Positions 1-10,785 of a stretch of 10,785 nt of DNA are shown piece by piece. Position 1 is the stretch's first letter. Each line of letters begins with the position of its first letter. The stretch comes from a virus (lineage: Duplodnaviria > Heunggongvirae > Uroviricota > Caudoviricetes). The notes below the pieces were generated by a model. It saw only the letters and a list, made by a program, of their open reading frames with translations, searched no databases and was not told where the DNA came from. The position numbers and the translations under genes were made by a program. The stretch is from positions 1 to 10,785 of IMG/VR virus record IMGVR_UViG_3300029647_000054; one strand, given 5' to 3'.

Positions 1-42
1 CAGTTGTTCAGGCTGGCGTGCGAATTGTAAACCAGAATGCCA

Positions 43-71
43 GGAAAAAACAAAACCCGCCGAAGCGGGTT
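43..71 (-). terminator. Rho-independent terminator at the 3' end of the hok transcript
   Basis: Inverted repeat 54-60 / 65-71 (AACCCGC / GCGGGTT) with 4-nt loop; on the minus strand the hairpin is followed by TTGTTTTTT (53-43); lies about 70 nt 3' of the hok stop. Confidence 0.55.
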
Positions 72-139
72 AAGTGCGGGTGCGTTGAGGATGCCTGACT
101 CATCAGAGGTGGCGAGGGATTTCTCCCTCGCCAGGTCTC

Positions 140-295
140 TTACTCCTCAGGTTCGTAAGCTGTGAAGACAGTGACCTCCGTCTGGCCGGTTCGGATTCGT
201 ACCTCGCAGAGGTCTTTCCTCGTTACCAGTGCCGTCACAATGACGGTAATACAGATGACGATCAGGGCGACTAACATCGCCTTTTGCTGCTTCAT
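140..295 (-). CDS. hok: Hok/Gef family type I toxin (51 aa, HokD/HokC-like small membrane toxin)
   Basis: In-frame internal ATG at 295 of the 70-aa track ORF; product MKQQKAMLVALIVICITVIVTALVTRKDLCEVRIRTGQTEVTVFTAYEPEE closely matches my recollection of HokD/HokC; SD AGGAG about 7 nt upstream; single TM helix. Confidence 0.85.
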   Translation of the reverse strand: MKQQKAMLVALIVICITVIVTALVTRKDLCEVRIRTGQTEVTVFTAYEPEE

Positions 296-352
296 AGCCT
301 GCTTCTCCTTGCCTTTCGGCGTGTAAGAGGCTAACCTACATGTGACTAGCAT
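140..352 (-). CDS. mok: Mok-like in-frame upstream reading frame that couples hok translation (70 aa)
   Basis: ATG at 352 in the same frame as hok, as recalled for chromosomal mokC/hokC pairs; existence as a separate regulatory frame is inferred from the hok/sok paradigm. Confidence 0.5.
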   Translation of the reverse strand: MLVTCRLASYTPKGKEKQAMKQQKAMLVALIVICITVIVTALVTRKDLCEVRIRTGQTEVTVFTAYEPEE

Positions 353-410
353 GAAATTGGCCTCAGATTAATGTTAAGCGTCCTGCAAGACGCATAATGT
401 TAACTGGGGC
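340..410 (+). ncRNA. sok: Putative Sok-like antisense RNA overlapping the mok start region (approximate)
   Basis: Inferred from hok/sok architecture only; candidate promoter TTGCCT (309-314) - 17 nt - TAACCT (332-337) on the plus strand; no clean terminator seen, ends not determined. Confidence 0.25.
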
Positions 411-510
411 TTTTCTCTGTCTGCCTTACGGTGGCATGCCCGAGGCAGACAGCCTCAAGCACCCGCAGCAATTCTACTTAACTCTCGCTTTACCGCAAAC
501 CGTTTTTACC

Positions 511-532
511 CGATATGGGAATTCCCATATCG
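511..532. repeat. Perfect 22-bp palindrome CGATATGGGAATTCCCATATCG
   Basis: Read directly: 11-nt arms exactly reverse-complementary with no spacer; not followed by a U-run on either strand. Confidence 0.8.
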
Positions 533-540
533 TAATGAAT

Positions 541-645
541 TCAGTTCCCTAGTCGATCCATCAAAAACACAACCAGGCAGTAAACACCCACAACAGCAAT
601 AACAGCCAGCGCACCTTCCATTGCCAGTGAGATATCATCCGACAC
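541..645 (-). CDS. Small hydrophobic peptide (34 aa, GTG start), single predicted TM helix
   Basis: Not in ORF track (too short). SD AAGGAGG 4 nt upstream of GTG at 645; product VSDDISLAMEGALAVIAVVGVYCLVVFLMDRLGN; start codon uncertain (alternative ATG at 621). Confidence 0.3.
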   Translation of the reverse strand: MSDDISLAMEGALAVIAVVGVYCLVVFLMDRLGN

Positions 646-680
646 ATTCCCTCCTTTGGTGTTAATCCCGGCGAACGCTT

Positions 681-764
681 TTACCCACACCGACAAATAA
701 CATATACTAAAAAAGCGATAGCCATAGCAACGCCTGTAATTGCAAATGCTTCAGGCCAGATCAT
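681..764 (-). CDS. Small hydrophobic peptide (27 aa), single predicted TM helix
   Basis: Not in ORF track. ATG at 764 overlaps the TGA of the upstream DUF551 gene (ATGA); strong SD GGAGG with 7-nt spacing; product MIWPEAFAITAVAMAIAFLVYVICRCG. Confidence 0.4.
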   Translation of the reverse strand: MIWPEAFAITGVAMAIAFLVYVICRCG

Positions 765-1438
765 TGGCGCACCTCCTGCGGCGGTTCTGGTAGCGGCATC
801 CAGTGGGTTACTTTCGATGCCGGTTCTTCCCCATCGTCAGTAACTGCCCACCATTTGTTTCTCGACCAATCGTAATACCCTTCGAAGGTATCGCACTCAG
901 TCCAGCCGTAAGACTTACCCCAACACCAAACATACTGTTTATCGTCCGGAATTCGCTCACTACAGCTTATCCAACCATCCGGAGTTACCGGAGAGCTGGT
1001 TGACGCTTCCGGGATTTTCCGAAAATTATTGGTTGACGAATCTTTATTTTCCCGAAAGTTTCCGGACTGAAGCATGGCTTCGCGGCAATCGTTCCAGCCT
1101 GTAGCGTATGCAGCCGCTTTGCTGCTGCCTTCAACTGGCGCATCCTGCCAATACATTTCTTCCGGCACTACCGGCGCTGGAGGGGCGGCGTAAATGCCCT
1201 CTATCACTAAATGTTTGCGCTCAAAATCATCTGGCTCTCGATGATATACGTAACTCCAATCACCAAGGTTATCATTGCGCCTGCAACGGAAACCTATCGG
1301 CTCTGCTTCCAGCGATGCCAGAGCAATTCGTGCCAGTTCTTCCGCTTCTTCTGCTGGCAGTACAACGTTGCTACCCGGTCCGTATGTTTCGCGCCACTGC
1401 TTGATTGTCAGCAGTCGCTCTTTGGTAATAGTGGTCAT
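761..1438 (-). CDS. DUF551 domain-containing phage protein (225 aa)
   Basis: C-terminal Trp-rich segment (DGWISCSERIPDDKQYVWCWGKSYGWTE...VTHWMPLPEPP) matches the DUF551 pattern I recall from E. coli prophage proteins; ATG start verified. Confidence 0.7.
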   Translation of the reverse strand: MTTITKERLLTIKQWRETYGPGSNVVLPAEEAEELARIALASLEAEPIGFRCRRNDNLGDWSYVYHREPDDFERKHLVIEGIYAAPPAPVVPEEMYWQDAPVEGSSKAAAYATGWNDCREAMLQSGNFRENKDSSTNNFRKIPEASTSSPVTPDGWISCSERIPDDKQYVWCWGKSYGWTECDTFEGYYDWSRNKWWAVTDDGEEPASKVTHWMPLPEPPQEVRQ

Positions 1439-1440
1439 AG

Positions 1441-1629
1441 CTATTTCACCTTAATCTCAACATTTCGCAGCTTTAGCTCTACTGGCAGGTCTGACTTTCC
1501 GGTTAATGCTAATGCGAGATTTTCTGGAGTAATGAGAGCAGTTATTGTTCTACCCATCGCAAGGCGGATAATCAGCCTTATCTCTTCGTCACAAGCGCCA
1601 GGGCGAATAATTGATATTTGTCCGTTCAC
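1441..1629 (-). CDS. Hypothetical small protein (62 aa, GTG start)
   Basis: GTG at 1629 one nt after the upstream TGA, preceded by SD AAAGGAGAG at 5-nt spacing; same geometry as the ATG at 2484. The track's ATG at 1671 would overlap the upstream gene by 41 nt and lacks an SD. Confidence 0.5.
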   Translation of the reverse strand: MNGQISIIRPGACDEEIRLIIRLAMGRTITALITPENLALALTGKSDLPVELKLRNVEIKVK

Positions 1630-1630
1630 C

Positions 1631-1663
1631 TCACTCTCCTTTAATGCGAATGCCAGCGGCGCG
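1631..1663. repeat. Module-junction repeat, copy 1 (about 33 bp, 31/33 identical to copy at 2486-2518)
   Basis: TCACTCTCCTTTAATGCGAATGCCAGCGGCGCG; encodes the shared C-terminal AGIRIKGE tail plus stop and the SD for the next gene. Confidence 0.8.
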
Positions 1664-2164
1664 GGAATCATTCCATCGCTTTACTTCTTCACGAATTACG
1701 TCAATGCATTCTTTCGAATCCATTAGGTAATCTTCATCAAAAAGACGTTCCTGTTCGTTTTCTATCGCAACAATGATTGCTTCAACTAACTTTTGTGCCT
1801 GAGAACCACTTTCTAACTCTGCAATGCGCTGTTTTACGGTATCAAGTTCAATCGATAATTTTTCCAACTGCTCTTTATGCTTCTTGTATTCCTGATATGC
1901 GTGCCAGGACTGACCTTTGCGCACACTATCAGTAATATCAGTAATCTGTTCTGGTGTTAGCGTAGTCAGTGGCTGTGCTGGGAAAATCAGCACTTTCCCG
2001 GAATCCCAATCAAAACCAGCGTGAATTGACTGAACCTCAACTGATGGTGTTGAACCGATGCGACCAGGCGAATGAACAACGATCGTTACATCCATATCTC
2101 GACGATGGCTGTGGTTGCTGGACAAAATACGATTCACCAACTCAGAAAATTTGGAAAATTTCAT
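1631..2164 (-). CDS. Hypothetical protein (177 aa) with coiled-coil C-terminus ending AGIRIKGE
   Basis: ATG at 2164 overlaps the upstream TGA (ATGA), SD AGAGGG at 7 nt; the track ORF's extra 43 N-terminal residues would overlap the upstream gene; last 8 residues identical to the Ea22-like protein. Confidence 0.6.
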
Positions 2165-2484
2165 GTTGATCCCTCTTTCTCTCCCCGGATAATTCTGTTG
2201 CACACATCCACACACTCGTCGCAGATGAAAACGGCGTCCCCAGCAATTAACTTTTTGACGGCGTACTGGGATTTGTTGCAGAAGCTGCAACAAAGTGTTC
2301 GCCTGACTGATAAGGATGGAGCGCCAGATGTCAGCCGCTCCATATCGTTCTTGCGACGCAATATCACACGGCTGAACTCAACCAGTTTCTCCGGGGATAT
2401 CTCCTCCTCCGTAGCGAGCGTCTCTAGTCGTTCGAGTATGTTGAAGGCTTTTTCCTGGGTAATAGCAGAATGCGATGTGGTCAT
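2161..2484 (-). CDS. Small protein with ClpX N-terminal zinc-binding-domain-like C4 zinc finger (107 aa)
   Basis: [38 protein letters not shown] aligns with ClpX N-terminus ([37 protein letters not shown], from memory) with identical CxxC-x18-CxxC spacing; ATG at 2484 with SD AAAGGAGAG. Confidence 0.75.
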
Positions 2485-2485
2485 C

Positions 2486-2518
2486 TCACTCTCCTTTGAT
2501 GCGAATGCCAGCGACGCG
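2486..2518. repeat. Module-junction repeat, copy 2
   Basis: TCACTCTCCTTTGATGCGAATGCCAGCGACGCG; same coding/SD content as copy 1. Confidence 0.8.
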
Positions 2519-3181
2519 TGGCACATTAACTTCCACGATGCGCACATTTGGTTTGTACATCTCAATCGCTGTCAGCCAGTCAGCGCCAGTCATGCGCTTT
2601 TCTGCATCGCCATTAGTCCACTTAACCGGTACACCAATAGCCTTCATCGCGATTTCTATTTCCCCGGCAATGGTGCTTTTTCCGCAACCAGTAAAACCAG
2701 ATACAACGACCAGAACTTCACCTTTGGCTGGTTTTATTTCCCGCGCTTCCAGTTCTGCTATGCGCTTACTTCCATCCGAGATAACACCTTCGTAATACTC
2801 ACGCTGCTCGTTGAGTTTTGATTTTGTCTCCTCAAGCTCAACGCGCAGCTTCCCTACCGTTAACGCAATATCCTCGTTCTCCTGGTCGCGGCGTTTGATG
2901 TATTGCTGGTTTCTTTCCCGTTCATCCAGCAGTGCCAAGACAGCAGTCGGATTGGCCTCTGCTATGAACTCAGCGTTTGCATAAGCCTGAGCATCTGTTT
3001 CAACCAGGCAGTTAACATGACATTCTGCAATCACGCCACCGGGTTCTCCTTTCCATTTTTGACAAACAAAAACTCCTGTTAAATTGCCGTGCTGGTTAAC
3101 AGATGTATGCCCTACGATGTAGCTTCCTTTAGTTGCTTTCTCTGCCTTTTCACGCAGTGCCTGATAGTTAATCTCGCTCAC
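2486..3181 (-). CDS. Ead/Ea22-like protein with C-terminal Walker A (P-loop) motif (231 aa, GTG start)
   Basis: N-terminal region with [20 protein letters not shown] motif typical of Ea22-like proteins as I recall them; central coiled coil; [10 protein letters not shown]-loop; GTG overlaps upstream TGA (GTGA) with SD GGAGGA at 6 nt. Confidence 0.7.
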
Positions 3182-3402
3182 TCTTCATCCTCCAAGTCGG
3201 CAACGGCGTCCATCACATCAGAACCGCGAATAACCTCAAAAGCACGGCAGGCCATTTGAAATACCAGTTGCTCTTGCGGGTGAGGAGACTCCCAATATTT
3301 GAAGCCTGGGCGATGCGTGTACCCCATCATTGAATAAAAATCACCAGCAAGCTTAATCGCGGCATCGACAAGCTCTCTGTTAGTCATTCTTTTTCCGCTC
3401 AC
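3178..3402 (-). CDS. Hypothetical small protein (74 aa, GTG start)
   Basis: GTG at 3402 overlaps the upstream TGA; SD AAGGAGG at 6 nt; no family recognised. Confidence 0.5.
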   Translation of the reverse strand: MSGKRMTNRELVDAAIKLAGDFYSMMGYTHRPGFKYWESPHPQEQLVFQMACRAFEVIRGSDVMDAVADLEDEE

Positions 3403-3749
3403 TGGTTGCCTCCTTTGCGAAGCTGGGCGGCTAACTCATCACATATGTGCGTCAAAGAACAAAGTTTGATTGATGGATGTTCGCGCATCATCTCTACCCC
3501 CTGCGCCCGCACTTCAGACAGGAAAGCATCGGTGGCTGGCATATTTCCTGTTGCCTTCATTGCCTCCAAAATAACCAGAACGCCATCTCGCCCAATCTCC
3601 TCGCAGATAACCTCGGTGCTGTCGCCAACAACATCGCAAAATGCCTGAACTGCTTTACGAGCCAGCGCATCTTCCGCCCTGTGAAACGCCTCGCGGTTGA
3701 AATTTTCATATCCCGTCATTGGACCGGCAATATAAACTCTGACCCTCAC
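3399..3749 (-). CDS. DUF4406-like (nucleoside 2-deoxyribosyltransferase-like fold) phage protein (116 aa, GTG start)
   Basis: N-terminal VYIAGPMTG motif characteristic of DUF4406 as I recall it; rest of protein did not match my memory of the family; GTG overlaps upstream TGA with SD AGGAGG at 7 nt. Confidence 0.55.
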   Translation of the reverse strand: MRVRVYIAGPMTGYENFNREAFHRAEDALARKAVQAFCDVVGDSTEVICEEIGRDGVLVILEAMKATGNMPATDAFLSEVRAQGVEMMREHPSIKLCSLTHICDELAAQLRKGGNQ

Positions 3750-4138
3750 TCCATCACCTCCTGAAAGTTTCCCCGATAGAACGCCAGCACACGCTGCATA
3801 ACTTCGCTCCTCCTGCTCTCACGACAAATTATGTTCTGCCGTCTGTTGTAACGACGTATTTCTCCGTCAGGTAACTTTCGAATCAGTGTCGGGTCAGCAG
3901 CCTTCTCCGGTGTCTTACGCCATACGCGATACGCCTGCTCTGATGGAAATACCCCGCAACCAGAGAGCCAGACATCACCACTGGCCGCAAGCGCACCAGA
4001 TAAACGACGAATAGCGGTCTTACTGACACCCGTTTTATCTGCCAGTTGTCGAAAAGTTTCTCGTCCGCTCAGGCGCACGAATTCCACAATGCGCGCCTTC
4101 ACTTCTTCCCGCTCTTCTGGTGTAAATACTTTTGCCAT
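3746..4138 (-). CDS. Putative HTH DNA-binding protein (130 aa)
   Basis: ATG at 4138 with SD GGAGG at 5 nt (track start at 4153 is TTG); helix-turn-helix-like segment FRQLADKTGVSKTAIRRLSG. Confidence 0.6.
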   Translation of the reverse strand: MAKVFTPEEREEVKARIVEFVRLSGRETFRQLADKTGVSKTAIRRLSGALAASGDVWLSGCGVFPSEQAYRVWRKTPEKAADPTLIRKLPDGEIRRYNRRQNIICRESRRSEVMQRVLAFYRGNFQEVME

Positions 4139-4153
4139 AAGCGCCTCCGGCAA

Positions 4154-4879
4154 TCACTTTTCCGATACAACACGGCGGGAAGAATCAGTAATCTGTCGAA
4201 CAATATCCCGGTGCTTGTTCAGCTCCCGCAGCGCGGCGCAGACTCGCTCCCACTTCTGAACCTGACCTTTTGCCCGGCGCAGCTCGCGGTTAGCCACATG
4301 CAGCGATGGTAAAATCAGACCATCCGGATGTTTTCTGGTGAACGACGGCTGTGACTGCACTGTGACCGCCACACTTTCCGTTTTTATTTCTTCCTGTGTT
4401 TCTGCTTCCCGGACAGGTAACGCAACACCTGCTGGCTGAGGAAAGGCTTTACCGTCGGTTTCCGCTACGGATGCAGCTTCCGGCTCTGCCGGTAAATCAG
4501 CGCCCGGTATGCAGTAACGAAATTTACCGCCCTGATTCACGCGAATCAGACGCCCTTTGCTGATTGCCATGGCCAGCGATGAATTCGCCCGGCGGGAGGT
4601 AATCCCGAACATCAGTGCCAGCTCATCCGCCGTTTGTGGGCCATGTTGTTCAATCGCCTCAGTCAGCATTTGCGCTGTCACTTTCGGTACCGGTGACACC
4701 GGTTCACTTTCACCAGCCTGAATCAGCCGCCACATCGAACCCTTGTTATCCGCTTCACCGCGGCGCTTCAGTTTCCACAGTTCGTTGACCGCATCTTCAC
4801 GGCTGATTCCAAGGCGGGACGCCACTACCTGTGAAGAGGCTCTTTTCAGTGCTTTCAGTGCGTCAAATACGGTTTCCAT
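4154..4879 (-). CDS. Hypothetical phage protein with two winged-helix-like segments (241 aa)
   Basis: ATG at 4879 with SD GGAGG at 8-nt spacing (track start at 4897 is TTG and contains that SD); two internal segments resembling winged-helix DNA-binding folds. Confidence 0.65.
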
Positions 4880-4912
4880 TAAAATTTCCTCCGACAAAAT
4901 CGTTTCTCAGAT

Positions 4913-5575
4913 TCAAATAAAACCAGCTGCCTTCCGGCGTTCGTATTCCTGTTTCAGCCGTTCAATTGGCGTTGGCCCTTGCGGGTGTTTCGCCCCTTCC
5001 AGTTGTCGTCGCACTGGCGGAACACTCATCCCGTTACCAACATGCTTTGCCCATTTCGTCAGTTGCCGTTCCGCAAGTCGTTTTAACTCACCCTGCGTCA
5101 TCTGGCGCTCAATCCCTCTGGTACGCATTTCGAGGCAGATGTGGTACAGCACAGGCTGTGGCCACGGGTATTTATCACTCCCGTCGTATCGCCAGGATTC
5201 ATTGCGCCAGCGCCGGTACTCTTCCATCACGGCATCCACCGTAAGACCAAATGGATTTGCCCCACTCTCCGAAATCAGCGCAACAAACTCAGCCAGGTCC
5301 GGGGGCCACGTTTCACCCGCCCGGCAGCGGTCCATGCACTGACGGCAGACCAGCCGGATTTGCTGTTCAGTCATCGTGCCAATCTGGGCAATCCAGAGCT
5401 TCGAAGGTGCGGCCCCGTTCTTCTGAGTCCAGCGGTTCGAATACACCTCCCCCATAAGCTCCCACAGCTTCCAGGCCATTTCCGTTGCTGATAAATCCGT
5501 TGTCTCGTTCCCACTGTTCGCGTGCTGCCCGGATTTCCTGAACTGCCCGTGATGCCGTGCCACCTGATGCTGCAT
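4913..5575 (-). CDS. Replication protein P-like (lambda P family helicase loader), up to 220 aa
   Basis: Similarity to lambda P as recalled (W-x-A...TMxEQ, FxP-P--F-A, YPW motifs); ATG at 5575 has SD AAGGGGG at 6 nt; start uncertain (alternatives 5479, 5455); overlaps O-like frame. Confidence 0.7.
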   Translation of the reverse strand: MQHQVARHHGQFRKSGQHANSGNETTDLSATEMAWKLWELMGEVYSNRWTQKNGAAPSKLWIAQIGTMTEQQIRLVCRQCMDRCRAGETWPPDLAEFVALISESGANPFGLTVDAVMEEYRRWRNESWRYDGSDKYPWPQPVLYHICLEMRTRGIERQMTQGELKRLAERQLTKWAKHVGNGMSVPPVRRQLEGAKHPQGPTPIERLKQEYERRKAAGFI

Positions 5576-6404
5576 GGCTTACCCCCTTGCTGACTGGTTT
5601 TACCTGTGTCCTGACGTGCTGCACGTGGCGGGCAAATTTCTGCTCCCACTGAACCTGTGTGAAAACCTTCCCCTCCGCCATCCAGTAATCCCGGAATGCG
5701 GCAAGCTCTGCAGGTGTAAATTCCGGCTCAGGCAGAGCCATACCCCACACTGCTGCCCGTTGTCGAAAATCCGACGACGGCTGCCAGACAGTAGTCATCG
5801 AAAATTTCCCGATCGGTTCGCTCAGGCCGTCCAGGTATTCAGGTTCGGCTGTCTGCAACGGCGCACCATGCGACTCACCGGTTGGAGCACTCTCGCGCAT
5901 GCGCGCGTTATGTGTGGGGTTTAATTCTGTATCTGTATCTTTATCTGTCGTGACTTGTCGTGACAGATGCGTGACACGTCGTGACTCATCGTGACAATCA
6001 GCATCATATTTCCGCAGCTTTTCGCGCTCCCGCTGCGCTCTCTTGCGCTCTGCCGGGGATTTTGCCGTTTGCGAAACGTTACCATTGTCCTCTTTCAGCA
6101 CCTGACGTTTTTCCCATCCGGAAATAAGGTCACCATCCAGAACCCGCCCCTGCATTGCATGCAAAATTGAATCAATTACGTCTTCCGTCACATCAAGCGC
6201 ACTTGCTAAATCTTCCGTCGTGACATCAATGTGACCACGTAGTGACACGCCGTGACATGTCGTGACATTTCGTGACGCACTCACCAGAAGGTGGATATAC
6301 ACCGCCATCACTGTTGCGATTGGCTGTCCTGAGACCCTGGCAATGGTTCGCCATTTGGGATCATTTGGCATGTCATGCCACAATCTGAGCCAGGCATTAG
6401 CCAT
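5367..6404 (-). CDS. Replication initiator / replisome organizer (lambda O-like) with internal iterons (345 aa)
   Basis: N-terminus MANAWLRLWHDMPNDPKWR resembles phage replisome-organizer N-domains; iteron clusters inside the coding region; ATG at 6404 with SD GAGG at 5 nt (track start 6410 is GTG). Confidence 0.75.
   Translation of the reverse strand: MANAWLRLWHDMPNDPKWRTIARVSGQPIATVMAVYIHLLVSASRNVTTCHGVSLRGHIDVTTEDLASALDVTEDVIDSILHAMQGRVLDGDLISGWEKRQVLKEDNGNVSQTAKSPAERKRAQREREKLRKYDADCHDESRRVTHLSRQVTTDKDTDTELNPTHNARMRESAPTGESHGAPLQTAEPEYLDGLSEPIGKFSMTTVWQPSSDFRQRAAVWGMALPEPEFTPAELAAFRDYWMAEGKVFTQVQWEQKFARHVQHVRTQVKPVSKGVSHAASGGTASRAVQEIRAAREQWERDNGFISNGNGLEAVGAYGGGVFEPLDSEERGRTFEALDCPDWHDD
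5948..5995. repeat. Iteron cluster 1: five direct repeats of (T/G)CGTGAC at 10-11 bp spacing, preceded by a 6-bp periodic (TATCTG-like) tract
   Basis: CGTGAC at 5949, 5959, 5970, 5980, 5990; adjacent tract 5924-5947; read directly. Confidence 0.7.
6220..6276. repeat. Iteron cluster 2: six direct repeats of GTGAC at 10-11 bp spacing
   Basis: GTGAC at 6220, 6231, 6242, 6252, 6262, 6272; read directly; about 270 bp from cluster 1, both inside the O-like gene. Confidence 0.7.
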
Positions 6405-6472
6405 ACTCACCTCATCTGATACCGAACTTTACCCTCGAACATCCGGAAGAAATCCGGCATGAATATTGTTGG

Positions 6473-6898
6473 TCAATGCACGACAACAGCATTACCAGGC
6501 TGACCACCACTGTTAGTCAGGGTGCCCCAGGCGATCGCCGCTGCGACAAAATCATCCACATCTTTCACCAGCCGATCCCTCCGTTCGACGATCTCACGGT
6601 AATATTCAGAGCTGTGACTGCGCATACGGGCCACCAGCAAAGGCGGCATCGCCTTTTCGATCGCCGGTAACAGAGCCTGCATTTTTTCAACAGCATCAGG
6701 GGTGTCTTTATCCAGCCAACGGAAAATTTTCTGGGTATTACGGGCCAGGGCTTCCGGATGGCTGTCGTCATACAGTTCCGGGAACGTCATTCCCAGCTCG
6801 AAATACGCTTTGGTAATTTTCGCAGCCGGTACTTTTTCGCCGTCCGGATGCGCCCAGACATTCATCGCCATGCGGATGTGTTCATGCTTGATTTTCAT
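6473..6898 (-). CDS. YdaT-like protein in the cII position (141 aa)
   Basis: Starts MKIKHEHI and ends VVVH as I recall for Rac YdaT; ATG overlaps the Cro-like gene's TGA (ATGA); family assignment from memory only. Confidence 0.55.
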   Translation of the reverse strand: MKIKHEHIRMAMNVWAHPDGEKVPAAKITKAYFELGMTFPELYDDSHPEALARNTQKIFRWLDKDTPDAVEKMQALLPAIEKAMPPLLVARMRSHSSEYYREIVERRDRLVKDVDDFVAAAIAWGTLTNSGGQPGNAVVVH

Positions 6899-7158
6899 GA
6901 ATCAACTCCCAGCGCGGGTTGTGTGTTAGCCTGATAGTCAACAGGTATGCCATCGGTTGGGTTGGGGTAAGTACTGCTATCAATCTCGTGCGGGGTCACT
7001 ACCCACCCTGTTGCTTCACACCAGCGTAAAACTTTCCCCCCCGTAAGTTTCGCCCGTCCAGTAATAACATGGCTTACCATCCCTTGGGTTACCCCAACAA
7101 TTTCAGCAAAATCTTTCTGGGTTATACGGGAATGATGCAAATATTCTCCAAGATTCAT
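6895..7158 (-). CDS. Cro-like HTH transcriptional regulator (YdaS/Cro family, 87 aa)
   Basis: HTH segment QKDFAEIVGVTQGMVSHVITG; divergent from the CI-like repressor across an operator-containing intergenic region; SD GAGGTG 4 nt before ATG. Confidence 0.75.
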   Translation of the reverse strand: MNLGEYLHHSRITQKDFAEIVGVTQGMVSHVITGRAKLTGGKVLRWCEATGWVVTPHEIDSSTYPNPTDGIPVDYQANTQPALGVDS

Positions 7159-7188
7159 TGTTCACCTCATGTTATGTGACCATGAATA

Positions 7189-7230
7189 TTAATAGCATTG
7201 TTATTTTTAAAAGTAAATAGCACTGCTATT
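7189..7230. promoter_or_regulatory. OR-like region: two 15-bp palindromic operators plus a PR-like promoter for the Cro-like gene
   Basis: Operators AATAGCATTGTTATT (7191-7205) and AATAGCACTGCTATT (7216-7230); on the minus strand TTTACT (-35, 7217-7212), 17-nt spacer, TATTAA (-10, 7194-7189). Confidence 0.65.
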
Positions 7231-7265
7231 TCAAAGAGATTAATAATCTTATTAGAATTGAAGGT

Positions 7266-7766
7266 ATGAAAAGAAAACCCCTGTCAGAGATCGACCTGCA
7301 AGCCGCCCAGAGACTGAAAGAAATCTGGACGACGAAAAAAACTCAACTTGGGTTAACCCAAGAGCGTGCGGCAGAAATTCTGGGTTTTTCGACACAAGGG
7401 GCAGTAAGCCATTATCTAAATGGTCAGACACCTTTAAATCTAGAGGCTGTTATCAAGTTCGCTGGGTTGCTACAAGTTCCGCCTGAGTCAATTAGACCAG
7501 ATATGGCAGACTTGTTACGAATTGTAAGGATGTACCCCCAAGAACTGCAGCAGGATAATGTTGTCGCTTTACCCGCAGAGATGGAACAATCGGAAAACGA
7601 ACTTCCGTTTAATATAGAACCTATAGAGCGAGATTTGATCCAGACGTTCAGGGCTTTCCCAAAAGAAGACAAAGAGAAAATGCTTAAGGAAATGAAGGAG
7701 AAAAAAGAATCAATTGAAGAAACCGTTGCGCGGTGGCTAGAGGCGCAAAAAGGTCTTCGCGCCTAA
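7266..7766 (+). CDS. paaR: CI-like HTH repressor, regulator of the three-component TA module (PaaR-like, 166 aa); no S24 peptidase domain
   Basis: N-terminal HTH (LGLTQERAAEILGFSTQGAVSHYLNG); divergent from Cro-like gene; directly upstream of antitoxin-toxin pair; C-terminus too short and lacks a LexA-like autocleavage domain. Confidence 0.75.
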   Translation: MKRKPLSEIDLQAAQRLKEIWTTKKTQLGLTQERAAEILGFSTQGAVSHYLNGQTPLNLEAVIKFAGLLQVPPESIRPDMADLLRIVRMYPQELQQDNVVALPAEMEQSENELPFNIEPIERDLIQTFRAFPKEDKEKMLKEMKEKKESIEETVARWLEAQKGLRA

Positions 7767-7783
7767 TCTGAGGAGGTTAGAAC

Positions 7784-7975
7784 ATGAGTACAGTCCTTTC
7801 CCCGATAATTTCAGAATTTGAAACAATCGAACAAGAAAACAGCTATAACGAATGGTTACGCACCAAAGTGGCAGCAAGCCTCGCAGACCCCCGTCCTGCA
7901 ATTCCGCATGACGAAGTAATGGCTGAAATGGAAAACCTTATTGCGCAAATAGCTTCGACGAACAGGAGTGAGTAA
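7784..7975 (+). CDS. paaA: PaaA-like antitoxin (63 aa)
   Basis: 63-aa acidic protein immediately upstream of and overlapping (TAATG) the ParE toxin gene; matches my recollection of the PaaA2 antitoxin from E. coli O157 paaR2-paaA2-parE2; SD GAGGAGG at 8 nt. Confidence 0.7.
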   Translation: MSTVLSPIISEFETIEQENSYNEWLRTKVAASLADPRPAIPHDEVMAEMENLIAQIASTNRSE

Positions 7976-8265
7976 TGCTGCCCATTTTATGGCTACCTTC
8001 TGCGCGTGATGATTTGCGTCAGATCGTAGCCTATATTGCCAAGGAAAACCCTCCCGCTGCACGTAGACTAAAAATACGCATTGAAACATCAGTTTTGTCA
8101 CTTACTGAACACCCTTACCTGTATCCACCAAGCGAAAGAGCCCTAGGCCTTCGTGAGATAGTGACCCATCCTAACTACATAATACTTTACCGAGTAACAG
8201 CATCTAACATCGAGATCGTAAATGTAGTTCACTCACGAAGGCAGTATCCAAACAAAAGCTGTTAA
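7975..8265 (+). CDS. parE: ParE/RelE-superfamily toxin (ParE-like, 96 aa)
   Basis: Typical ParE sequence features (LPILWLPSARDDLRQIVAYI...EHPYLYPPSE...REIV); start overlaps antitoxin stop by 1 nt. Confidence 0.8.
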   Translation: MLPILWLPSARDDLRQIVAYIAKENPPAARRLKIRIETSVLSLTEHPYLYPPSERALGLREIVTHPNYIILYRVTASNIEIVNVVHSRRQYPNKSC

Positions 8266-8280
8266 TCATTCCTACCAACA

Positions 8281-8304
8281 ACCACCTTCGGGTGGTTTTT
8301 TTTT
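8281..8304 (+). terminator. Rho-independent terminator after parE
   Basis: ACCACC-TTCG-GGTGGT hairpin followed by a run of nine T. Confidence 0.8.
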
Positions 8305-8320
8305 CTTACCTCCAAAAAAC

Positions 8321-8362
8321 AATAGCATTACTATTTACAGAATAAAATAGCAGTGCTATTGT
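8321..8362 (+). promoter_or_regulatory. OL-like region: two 15-bp palindromic operators plus a PL-like promoter driving the dicB-type operon
   Basis: Operators AATAGCATTACTATT (8321-8335) and AATAGCAGTGCTATT (8346-8360); TTTACA (-35, 8334-8339), 17-nt spacer, TATTGT (-10, 8357-8362); mirrors the OR architecture. Confidence 0.65.
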
Positions 8363-8538
8363 TTATTCATCACCCACCCTCCCCACAGAATGCAGGGCAA
8401 TACTTCGAGTTACCCGGCAGTGGTCAGGGGTTAAGTAGCCAGCCCGAGGCGTATGAACATGACGGCGGGAACACTTTGTATAACAGCGCAGCAGGTTTTT
8501 GTTCCGCTACCCCGGCGTTAAGGGGAAATGAGGTCAGC

Positions 8539-8691
8539 ATGGATACTATCGAGCTTGGCAACAGCGAATCTCTGGTATGCGGCGTGTTTCCCAACCAGGA
8601 CGGCACGTTTACCGCGATGACGTATACCAGAAGCAAAACGTTTAAAACGGAAGCTGGCGCGCGTCGCTGGTTAGCAAGAAGCTCTGACTGA
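8539..8691 (+). CDS. Small protein (50 aa), first gene of the PL-type operon; possibly YdfA/YdaF (DUF1391)-like
   Basis: ATG with SD GAGG at 5 nt; in frame with the track ORF whose GTG start lies inside the operator; family assignment is positional only. Confidence 0.4.
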   Translation: MDTIELGNSESLVCGVFPNQDGTFTAMTYTRSKTFKTEAGARRWLARSSD

Positions 8692-8789
8692 TGAAGGTTA
8701 GTAATTAAAGAGTTCTCCACAGGCGAAGTGGAATACGTTCGCAGGACACGGGTAAGCATTCGGCATGCTCTTTAACAATCTGGGTATTC

Positions 8790-9236
8790 CTAACCACAAA
8801 GGAATCGCATCAATTTGGATTTTGCAGACAGTTTCTCTTGTTGTTCTACGGAGATTCCTATTTTGATCTGGGTTTTTAAGATTGCGATATCTTTAAGCGA
8901 CGACCAAATATTATCATCTGTTTTTTCCAGGAGCTTTAACTGCATTTTCAATTCCGAATCGGAATATTTTTCTGCATCATCATAAAGCTGCAGATATTCT
9001 GCGGATTTTCTCATTGCGTTACCTGACTTTTGTCCGAATCCGTAAATCGTTTGAACGGTTGCTATCACAACAATGAGAACTCCAGAAACTTCAGGAATAA
9101 ATCCACCAATGACAGATGAACCGAGGATAATACTCACCACTGAGAAAAGTTTATCGAGACGACCAGTCGCTACAGAGAATAGTTGTTCAAGAAAATAACC
9201 ATATAAAACCCTGTCAAGAATATCATCCCGGTCCAT
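8790..9236 (-). CDS. AT-rich two-TM membrane protein with coiled-coil-like C-terminus (148 aa); candidate superinfection-exclusion (sieB-position) protein
   Basis: Opposite strand to the surrounding operon; SD AGGTG at 8 nt; hydrophobic segments LFSVVSIILGSSVIGGFI and VLIVVIATVQTIYGF; clearly lower GC than neighbours; function inferred from position. Confidence 0.55.
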   Translation of the reverse strand: MDRDDILDRVLYGYFLEQLFSVATGRLDKLFSVVSIILGSSVIGGFIPEVSGVLIVVIATVQTIYGFGQKSGNAMRKSAEYLQLYDDAEKYSDSELKMQLKLLEKTDDNIWSSLKDIAILKTQIKIGISVEQQEKLSAKSKLMRFLCG

Positions 9237-9295
9237 ATATCATCACCTGCTTGTTTGATTGTTGCTGTTCCCCCTCTCCTCTGAAGGAGCTGGAG

Positions 9296-9484
9296 ATGGT
9301 TTTGGTCGAATGTTTTTCTCAGGTATATGTTTCCTGGTATTCGGAATGTCCGCCCTGTCCGCAGGCTTACCAGTACCTGAACAATTCTTTTGAACCACCA
9401 TATAAAACACCTTCCTGTTGTTGGGGATATCCAGATTATACAGATTTCCTGTTATTGGGGAATGACGGAAACCACCTCGCCTGA
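9296..9484 (+). CDS. Small Cys-rich protein (62 aa), hypothetical
   Basis: ATG with SD GAAGGAG at 6 nt; six Cys including CPPCP and SCCW; preferred over the overlapping low-complexity minus-strand ORF. Confidence 0.4.
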   Translation: MVLVECFSQVYVSWYSECPPCPQAYQYLNNSFEPPYKTPSCCWGYPDYTDFLLLGNDGNHLA

Positions 9485-9699
9485 CGTGGTTAAAAGCAGG
9501 CACACAACACGAAAGCGCACGGCGAGATTCCTTTGCATATAAGGCTTGTCGTTAAATTTCTTCGACCGTGCACTTCCGGTTGTGGCAGTCCGCGAAATGG
9601 CGCGGCGGTAAGTATGGCTGGGGCTTCCTCCATTGCTCCAGAAAATGCACCGGGTCGTCAGGTTGACCATACGCTTAAGTGACAGCCCCGCCACAATAC

Positions 9700-9757
9700 C
9701 CATGTGTAGTATTTGGTGGCATCAGTTCTACTCCGTGACTGCTCTGCCACCCTTTTT
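9700..9757 (+). ncRNA. dicF: DicF-like small RNA (ftsZ-targeting sRNA family) with intrinsic terminator
   Basis: TTTGGTGGCATCAGTTCTACTCCGTGACTGCTCTGCCACCCTTTTT closely matches my recollection of K-12 DicF, with compensatory stem changes; sits directly upstream of dicB as in Qin. Confidence 0.7.
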
Positions 9758-9761
9758 AAAG

Positions 9762-9922
9762 TGAATTTTGTGATGCGGTGAATGCGGCTATGCGCACGCG
9801 GAACAGTTAAAACCGTAAAGTGGTCTTTTACGGGGCGTAACGGGCATCCTTCTGTATTCCGGCGTTAATTGTTAACTGGTTAACGTCACCTGGAGGCACC
9901 AGGCACCGCATCACAAAATTCA
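9762..9922 (+). repeat. Long-range 19-nt perfect inverted repeat (TGAATTTTGTGATGCGGTG at 9762-9780 and its reverse complement at 9904-9922) bracketing 123 nt between dicF and dicB
   Basis: Read directly; would form a 19-bp RNA duplex in the operon transcript. Confidence 0.7.
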
Positions 9923-9939
9923 TTGTTGAGGACGCGATA

Positions 9940-10128
9940 ATGGAAACGTTATTACCAAACGTTAATACGTCTGAAGGTTGTTTTGATATTGGTGTTCTGC
10001 TCAGTAACCGGGAGTTTACGGAAGATGCCATTAAGATGAGAAAATATGAACCTTATCTTCTCAATGATAATTCCATACTTTCCAGAATTGCCCTTCTTGA
10101 ACTTGGTATTATCGGAGAACAGCAGTGA
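9940..10128 (+). CDS. dicB: Cell division inhibitor DicB (62 aa)
   Basis: N-terminal 35 residues (METLLPNVNTSEGCFDIGV...FTEDAI) closely match K-12 DicB as recalled; C-terminus diverges; SD GAGGA at 7 nt. Confidence 0.85.
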   Translation: METLLPNVNTSEGCFDIGVLLSNREFTEDAIKMRKYEPYLLNDNSILSRIALLELGIIGEQQ

Positions 10129-10313
10129 CTTCAGCATTTGCACTGGTGATGACCGTTTTTCTTATAACGGGTGAGCCACAAAATGTGATTACCGGAATTT
10201 ATGACAGTAAGTCATCCTGCATTCAGGTAAGGGACGAACAAAAAATCCCCGGTGAATGCCTCCCGTTAAAAAAAGTATCGCTGAACCTGAATAACGAAAT
10301 ACCGGCTGGATAA
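10125..10313 (+). CDS. ydfD: YdfD-like small membrane/lysis protein (62 aa, GTG start)
   Basis: GTG overlaps the dicB stop (GTGA), SD GGAGAA at 5 nt; N-terminal hydrophobic helix; assignment by position in the dicB operon and size. Confidence 0.5.
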   Translation: MTSAFALVMTVFLITGEPQNVITGIYDSKSSCIQVRDEQKIPGECLPLKKVSLNLNNEIPAG

Positions 10314-10408
10314 CCCGCCAGCCATATTAACACCATACCAACGGATTAAAAATGCCAGCAATGGCAGGGATTCGTTCACCCTGAAATCTGTAATGAGGTT
10401 AAAACAAA

Positions 10409-10785
10409 ATGAGTAAAGTCTTTATTTGCGCCGCTATTCCTGACGAACTGGCAACAAGGGAAGAAGGCGCTGTGGCTGTAGCCACAGCCATTGAAGCTGG
10501 CGACGAACGCCGTGCTCGAGCAAAATTTCACTGGCAATTCCTGGAACATTATCCGGCTGCTCAGGACTGCGCTTATAAATTTATTGTCTGCGAGGATAAA
10601 CCCGGCATACCCCGCCCTGCCCTCGATTCATGGGATGCTGAATATATGCAGGAAAACCGCTGGGATGAGGAGTCTGCTTCCTTTGCCCCGGTTGAGACTG
10701 AATCAGATCCGATGAACGTCACTTTTGACAAGCTGGCCCCTGAAGTACAGAACGCTGTCATGGTTAAGTTCGACACATGTGAAAA
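10409..10785 (+). CDS. Partial CDS (runs off the window end, at least 125 aa), YdfE-position hypothetical protein
   Basis: ATG at 10409 with SD GAGG; open frame to the window end; not in the track because no stop is reached. Confidence 0.55.
   Translation, partial: MSKVFICAAIPDELATREEGAVAVATAIEAGDERRARAKFHWQFLEHYPAAQDCAYKFIVCEDKPGIPRPALDSWDAEYMQENRWDEESASFAPVETESDPMNVTFDKLAPEVQNAVMVKFDTCE

Follow-up and report, generated by a model that had tools for sequence, protein, structure and literature searches.

Ea22 proteins are early, pro-lysogenic phage proteins with interchangeable C-terminal domains (CTDs) (PMC10834534, PMC7093339), which form tetramers at full length and have a coiled coil as their central region (PMC10834534), and which tilt the choice between lysis and lysogeny in lambda and in Shiga toxin (Stx) phages. 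The CTDs differ between Ea22 variants (PMC10834534), and both the CTD of the lambda protein, whose structure was solved by nuclear magnetic resonance, and those of three published Stx variants have been described without a P-loop or Walker motif (PMC10834534, PMC7093339). The gene considered in the present work, by contrast, encodes a complete Ead/Ea22-like protein of 231 amino acids (aa) that carries a Walker A motif within a C-terminal unit of about 70 residues; it occupies positions 2486 to 3181, on the minus strand, of a 10,785-nucleotide stretch of viral DNA (“the window”, positions 1 to 10,785 of the Caudoviricetes record IMGVR_UViG_3300029647_000054). The reading of this unit that we prefer, at a probability of roughly 0.55, is that of an autonomous minimal phosphate- or nucleotide-binding domain which works as an oligomer and which, in this protein, is displayed on an Ea22 scaffold.

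The papers on Ea22 that were consulted contain no mention of a P-loop, a Walker motif or an ATPase, and a literature search returned no description of natural P-loop proteins of about 70 aa. To our knowledge, characterised natural P-loop nucleoside triphosphatase (NTPase) domains have a length of about 150 residues or more, and the question whether beta-(P-loop)-alpha units of a far smaller size can function has until now been put only to designed polypeptides. A natural and abundant family of about 70 residues, which is under strong purifying selection, retains both the Walker A and the Walker-B-like motif and can be produced free of any scaffold, would make the question of the minimal P-loop directly testable. 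It would also serve as a natural counterpart to the engineered minimal P-loop polypeptides, which function only as oligomers (doi 10.1101/2020.07.30.228619).

The gene, as given in the list of open reading frames (ORFs), starts at a GTG codon which overlaps the stop codon of an upstream 74-aa ORF (GTGA), and its own stop codon lies at 2486-2488. The original prediction, which was made from the sequence, described an Ea22-type N-domain followed by a coiled coil and a short C-terminal module, and this architecture is borne out. The Pfam family PF13935 (Ead_Ea22) matches aa 2-145 (E 3.4e-41, 141.5 bits against a gathering cut-off of 27), so that only the N-terminal two-thirds of the protein belong to the family, and a crude heptad scan scores highest at aa ~97-136, in agreement with the coiled coil described for Ea22 proteins (PMC10834534, PMC7093339). 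In megablast comparisons the similarity to phages breaks at window position ~2937 (aa 81/82), at ~2738 (aa 148/149) and, where the gene ends, at 2482-2485, and these three breakpoints divide the gene into three cassettes, all on the minus strand: an Ea22-type N-terminal domain (aa 1-81, 2939-3181), to which phrog_6389 matches at aa 1-70; a helical or coiled-coil linker (aa 82-149, 2735-2938), which lies within the PF13935 match and contains the heptad peak; and a miniature P-loop module (aa 150-225, 2507-2734), with a conserved core at aa 154-221. The matches to JL22, phiv142-3 and APC_JM3.2 end at the first breakpoint, and that to CP-1639 stops at window position 2738, the upstream boundary of the module. 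The module recombines as a cassette onto different Ea22 scaffolds, and it constitutes a previously undescribed cargo domain of these mosaic proteins. The sequence itself is not new: the gene has 95% DNA identity to phiV10 gp48, and the identical protein is deposited at NCBI, from 18 contigs, under the generic annotation “ead/Ea22-like family protein [Escherichia coli]” (EGM8144547.1 and others).

The protein shares with the lambda and Stx Ea22 proteins the N-terminal region, the coiled-coil scaffold, the mosaic exchange of the C-terminal part, a terminus of the K/R-G-E type and a place among early accessory genes. Apart from the CTD, it differs from them in that its gene lies downstream of O/P-like replication genes rather than between exo and xis. 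Among the PDB sequence matches of the 231-aa protein there is no Ea22 chain, even at E <= 10, and thus no homology to the lambda Ea22 CTD was detected.

The evidence that the module is a discrete domain comes from its distribution. When the last 88 aa were used as the query, 266 clusters at 90% identity were retrieved, the best 120 of which show an identity of 91% or more to the query and mostly have different, shorter N-terminal parts. An exhaustive HMMER scan of 1.84 billion representatives yielded 434 clusters (at 50% identity) with E <= 1e-3, of which 330 have E <= 1e-10. Throughout the 147 new proteins found among the best 150 of the 434, the match spans the same ~72 residues; a tail of 6-7 aa follows it in most of these proteins, in some, which are 260-465 aa long, the module lies at aa ~22-96, and a few bear it internally. 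A profile of distant members retrieved 649 clusters, and 82 of the 117 new proteins listed from it are free-standing (<=95 aa), many of them with a length of 71-72 aa; many of these 71-72-aa forms begin M-S-E-I-T-V-T-V-S-G-P-V-G-C-G-K-S and finish three residues past VVIVE. The unit at aa ~154-221 is a complete, self-contained domain with fixed boundaries, which occurs at C-terminal, N-terminal and internal positions across unrelated proteins.

The same domain is spread widely over proteobacteria and their phages. It was found in 365 of 5,426 complete E. coli genomes, in 314 chromosomal and 81 plasmid places, and in 23 sequenced phages, which include phiV10 (gp48), D6, JL22, Yersinia fHe-Yen8-01 and Burkholderia BcepC6B (gp37). 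A scan of one genome per species detected relatives in Escherichia, Serratia, Mangrovibacter, Chania, Methyloversatilis, Pandoraea, Sulfuriferula, Methylobacterium, Mesorhizobium and one Acetobacteraceae metagenome-assembled genome, and these relatives, at 45-56% identity, retain the pattern GxxGxGKSA..GEIE ... EKxMTHADW ... PxVxhxE. In the phages and prophages of alpha- and beta-proteobacteria the domain is mostly a stand-alone protein of 71-90 aa. Jumbo (~225 kb) Burkholderia and Ralstonia phages have a 38%-identical module inside a 534-aa protein in which no Pfam domain was found (Burkholderia phage FLC8, L103 769-2373, and relatives); this copy has lost GEIE and EKxMTxADW and has kept the Walker A motif and VRIVE, and the classical nucleotide-binding motifs are therefore the most deeply conserved features of the family. 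A set of 22 longer fusion proteins contained no informative Pfam domain, the few matches all falling below gathering cut-offs.

In P0208, P0215 and P0201, homologues from high-G+C proteobacteria, the module is one of several segments joined by recurring linkers of the “AAQPSPGGQD” type; the linker-joined homologues are proteins of 150-465 aa without Pfam domains, and the arrangement suggests linker-mediated domain shuffling, analogous to the enterobacterial Ea22 mosaics. The 152-aa protein P0193 has only the second half of the module, fused to an unrelated N-terminal sequence, and this hybrid shows a recombination junction within the module.

The Walker A motif, GFTGCGKST (aa 162-170, 2672-2698, minus strand), sits 61-62 residues before the C-terminus (62 for S169), which is roughly where it had been placed beforehand (about 70 residues). 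Taken on its own the motif is not beyond chance: G-x4-GK[ST] occurs once in the six-frame translation of the window, while 200 shuffles gave a mean of 0.44 and at least one occurrence in 34% of cases, so that the reality of the motif rests on its conservation. This conservation is nearly complete and confirms the Walker A as genuine; the lack of conservation in homologues, which the original prediction had named as grounds for refutation, was not observed. The motif is intact in 119/120, 144/147 and 117/117 members of the three homologue sets (the best 120 of the 266 clusters, the 147 from the best 150 scan matches and the 117 listed from the distant-member profile), or 380/384 overall; the full family signature is kept in 375 of these 384 retrieved homologues, and the Walker A motif is retained both in the relatives at 45-56% identity and in those at 38%. 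Its immediate surroundings are also those of a Walker A loop, as GFTGCGKS (aa 162-169) follows the hydrophobic stretch EVLVVVS and precedes a helix predicted at aa 168-181.

Conservation extends over the whole module. In an alignment of 82 sequences (A4) the columns G162, G165, G167, K168, S169, G173, E174, I175, A181, G183, E194, Y209, P211 and E217 are invariant. The family-specific motif E-K-x-M-T-x-A-D-W (aa 194-202, 2576-2602, minus strand) is invariant or nearly so in this alignment, GEIE is a further motif particular to the family, and the hydrophobic stretch VRIVE (aa 213-217, 2531-2545, minus strand) ends in E217, which is also kept at 38% identity. To judge from the sequence, VRIVE and its glutamate may have the role of a Walker B motif; no strand is assigned there when DSSP is applied to the AlphaFold2 (AF2) models. 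Over the module, the pairwise ratio of nonsynonymous to synonymous substitution rates (dN/dS) is 0.02-0.14, which indicates purifying selection; between genera, the synonymous sites are nearly saturated.

These data bear directly on the idea that the unit is what is left of a full-size NTPase gene in decay and has no function by itself. Such a remnant might be suspected because the unit falls far short of the usual length of P-loop NTPase domains and matches only positions 3-41 of the 152-position APS_kinase model, but the low dN/dS, the 14 columns which are invariant across 82 diverse sequences, the fixed boundaries and the existence of hundreds of independent stand-alone genes make the idea scarcely credible; the conservation data and the stand-alone forms rule out a truncated remnant. 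The original prediction had suggested that the unit may be “truncated or minimal”. The second word is at present the best reading of the sequences, whereas the first is contradicted by the fixed boundaries in 434 clusters, the varied positions and the free-standing occurrence in 82 of 117 proteins.

Comparison with known families places only the first half of the module. No Pfam, NCBIfam or PADLOC model reaches its threshold on the module, none of the matching PHROGs (11761, 31825, 3787, 11809 and 33234) has an assigned function, and among solved and predicted structures none that has an assigned function gives a significant match. A search against the defence and anti-defence families of PADLOC gave no match for the 231-aa protein and only chance-level P-loop matches for two stand-alone homologues. 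The sub-threshold Pfam matches are confined to the N-terminal ~40 positions of P-loop families, the most frequent of which is APS_kinase (PF01583, adenosine 5'-phosphosulfate (APS) kinase; 36 of 40 members, best E 3.6e-5). The module of the window scores 18.0-18.2 bits against this model, whose cut-off is 21.1, and covers only the profile positions given above; falling below the gathering threshold and leaving most of the ~150-residue domain uncovered, it does not qualify as an APS kinase. When the family profile was aligned by hhalign with E. coli CysC, however, a probability of 95.8% was obtained (E 7.8e-9, 41% identity over CysC residues 29-65), as against 6% for MinD and 9% for Adk, and this difference indicates that the likeness is specific to APS kinase. 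On this sequence comparison the first half of the module is APS-kinase-like, corresponding to the N-terminal beta1-P-loop-alpha1-beta2 part of the enzyme. The differences are equally clear: some 37 of the ~150 domain residues are matched, the module is without the APS-binding region, the lid and strands 4-5, and its second half (EKxMTxADW ... PxVxhxE) has no counterpart in APS kinase and no detectable relative in the searches. The SIMIBI-class P-loop NTPases (dethiobiotin synthetase, 3fgn; SRP54, 5l3v) are also among the closest known systems.

The specificity of the 41% identity for CysC residues 29-65 can be read in another way, namely that the module is a mimic, or a dominant-negative version, of the N-terminal half of an APS-kinase-like host P-loop kinase or ATPase, which docks on a host oligomeric partner and keeps its Walker A motif for the sake of shape. 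It would be in keeping with this that the domain ends after three predicted strands, and that small inhibitors of host proteins abound in early phage regions, an example being Oad2, a relative of P22 EaE that some phages carry as a fusion with an EaD/Ea22 protein (doi 10.64898/2026.07.10.737580). The Walker A motif and the glutamate are nevertheless invariant across phages of alpha-, beta- and gamma-proteobacteria, the most deeply conserved residues are K, S and E of catalytic type, a pattern that fits ligand chemistry better than a binding surface, and yeast two-hybrid surveys found no host partner of lambda Ea22 (PMC10834534). We consider a mimic of this kind quite unlikely.

Two AF2 runs gave mean predicted local distance difference test scores (pLDDT) of 80.5 and 80.7 and a predicted template modelling score of 0.68; confidence is 88-90 over aa 150-189, where the helix at aa 168-181 directly follows GKS, and further helices are predicted at aa 192-195 and 202-209. 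Two features of these predictions weigh against a P-loop domain. DSSP assigns no strands, and the canonical P-loop sheet is absent from the AF2 models, so that the three-layer alpha/beta/alpha fold with a parallel sheet of at least five strands by which P-loop NTPases are recognised was not found; moreover, the mean pLDDT of the five models ranges from 54 to 81. A model of a single chain may fall short if strands are paired between subunits. Structure prediction and profile search of the C-terminal part, proposed beforehand as a check, gave an APS-kinase-like first half from the profile (hhalign, 95.8%) and no canonical sheet from the models. Because the models are moderate and lack this sheet, the fold and the ligand binding are what we infer.

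The arrangement that we favour would begin with a predicted unit of the P-loop-kinase (APS-kinase-like) type, beta1 / Walker A loop / alpha1 / beta2; a helix particular to the family would come next, and then a third hydrophobic strand, which would end in the invariant glutamate. K168 and S169, helped by E217, would bind a phosphate-bearing ligand, most likely a Mg-nucleotide, and these three residues offer mutational handles on the function of the Ea22 cargo domain. Since the module is without the strands and the lid by which full-size NTPases hold the base, it probably acts in oligomeric form. The prophages of enterobacteria carry the domain as swappable cargo on an oligomerising scaffold of Ea22 N-domain and coiled coil, and elsewhere it is made as a free early phage protein of 71-90 aa. 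Its likely role is that of a ligand-binding module, as a sensor or sequestering protein in the early accessory, host-interaction repertoire, rather than that of an efficient enzyme.

A search of PDB sequences with the family profile found nothing significant, and the best matches were 6c2u, a designed “phosphate-loop protein” (E 0.019), and 9jix, a de novo ATPase (E 0.032). The engineered P-loop prototypes (6c2u/6c2v; doi 10.1101/2020.07.30.228619) are thus the nearest, though non-significant, likeness in the PDB; they are designed or ancestral-reconstruction constructs rather than natural genes, the likeness is limited to the consensus P-loop segment, and the phage family has in addition further invariant motifs and is under natural purifying selection. 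On a bolder view, which we offer as tentative, the family would comprise the smallest natural P-loop proteins. Only as homo-oligomers, whose active sites would be completed between subunits, would they bind a nucleotide, or a signal derived from one, and perhaps also turn it over; temperate phages would use them early in infection to detect a host nucleotide or immune signal or to remove it from play, and the engineered “P-loop prototypes”, which have been proposed as ancestral to all P-loop NTPases, would have their natural counterparts in them. The same two PDB matches could instead point to a general polyanion binder, in which an oligomerised mini-P-loop binds single-stranded DNA, RNA or polyphosphate, as the prototypes do (doi 10.1101/2020.07.30.228619), in place of a specific nucleotide, and acts on recombination or replication intermediates; the genes of the module do often adjoin RecT, exonuclease or replication genes. 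The charge of the module argues the other way. It is neutral to slightly charged (net +2 here), its invariant positions beyond the Walker A motif are mostly acidic (E174, E176, E194, D201 and E217), which is unfavourable for nucleic acids, and published Ea22 CTDs are acidic (PMC10834534). A polyanion binder therefore seems to us unlikely.

The question of a partner was addressed from the gene neighbourhoods. The stand-alone homologues sit in arrays of 65-112-aa genes which adjoin integrases or RecT/exonuclease modules. An all-against-all BLAST of the neighbours at 96 loci found no conserved neighbour of the stand-alone loci, and the neighbours that are conserved at the enterobacterial loci reflect close relatedness only. 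A conserved partner gene that would supply the missing half of the fold is rejected on the same comparison. A Tad2-like gene (PF11195, the anti-Thoeris sponge family) was observed no more than ~1 kb from stand-alone genes on two unrelated viral contigs (L098 3507-3722 and L016 1445-1777).

The original prediction had proposed, more specifically, that the module may work with the product of the downstream gene (2161-2484, minus strand), which is a ClpX-type C4 zinc-finger protein (PF06689, E 1.8e-15) of 107 aa from its likely start. This start is the ATG at 2484-2482 (M28 of the listed ORF), placed by phrog_6797. The stop codon of the Ea22-like gene and the ATG are separated by 1 nucleotide (TGA-G-ATG), the Shine-Dalgarno sequence AAGGAG is located within the last Ea22-like codons, and the two genes are translationally coupled in this window. 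A partial nucleotide-binding unit completed by, or working with, the zinc-finger protein would accord with this coupling and with the same pair on one 114-kb plasmid, but it is largely refuted by co-occurrence: the module and the zinc-finger gene are contiguous in 0/151 matching phage records and in 1/1,036 matching complete E. coli genomes, the gene downstream of gp48 in phiV10 is a different and unrelated one, and the stand-alone homologues have no conserved neighbour. The usual place of the zinc-finger gene, mostly on ~100-kb phage-plasmids, is downstream of other Ea22-like genes, and these have only the ~40-nucleotide junction in common with the present gene. We regard the partnership as very improbable, and the zinc-finger gene as a coupled neighbour rather than a conserved partner. 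The zinc-finger protein could act as a decoy of the N-domain with which ClpX recognises its adaptors and substrates.

The junction between the two genes (2477-2519, minus strand), which comprises the gene tail, the stop codon, the ribosome-binding site and the start of the next cistron, is the point at which the similarity to phages exactly ends, and its sequence, GCTGGCATTCGCATCAAAGGAGAGTGAGATG, recurs after a second Ea22-like gene; the ~40-nucleotide junction is the sole segment common to more than 100 Stx phages. Both Ea22-like genes (junctions at 2477-2519 and 1624-1660, minus strand) end ...GCTGGCATTCGCAT[C/T]AAAGGAGAGTGAG[A/G]TG, in which the K-G-E-stop codons hold the Shine-Dalgarno sequence 6 nucleotides before the next start, itself 1 nucleotide past the stop. 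What the “+GE” motif at the C-terminus of Ea22 proteins signifies has been called unknown (PMC7093339), and the combination of a ribosome-binding site and a recombination linker offers an explanation for it at the nucleotide level. The second Ea22-related gene belongs to the same operon (1631-2164, minus strand; phrog_6026/phrog_368); its likely start, the ATG at 2164, overlaps the stop codon of the zinc-finger gene (ATGA), and its product has a different body and the same AAGIRIKGE tail.

The window as a whole is the immunity and replication region of a prophage, with a PaaA2-ParE pair, cI-like and Cro-like repressors, YdaT, an initiator with a DnaT domain, a lambda-P-like protein, DUF1627 and DUF977, after which comes the string of small accessory genes that includes the Ea22-like gene. 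Early accessory regions of the kind in which the family is located are emerging as reservoirs of anti-immunity proteins, as has been reported for the ea/recombination region (doi 10.64898/2026.07.10.737580). Among the other genes of the window, the ORF at 3399-3749 (minus strand) is chimeric: its first ~30 aa match the N-terminus of DUF4406 or nucleoside 2-deoxyribosyltransferase-like proteins, and the remainder matches phrog_492 in its C-terminal part. At the equivalent position phiV10 has a gene annotated as “eae-like”, and the relatives of EaE include the anti-OLD protein Oad2 (doi 10.64898/2026.07.10.737580). The PaaA2-type antitoxin (PF21217) and the ParE toxin (PF05016) are encoded at 7784-8265 (plus strand), directly downstream of the cI-like repressor gene.
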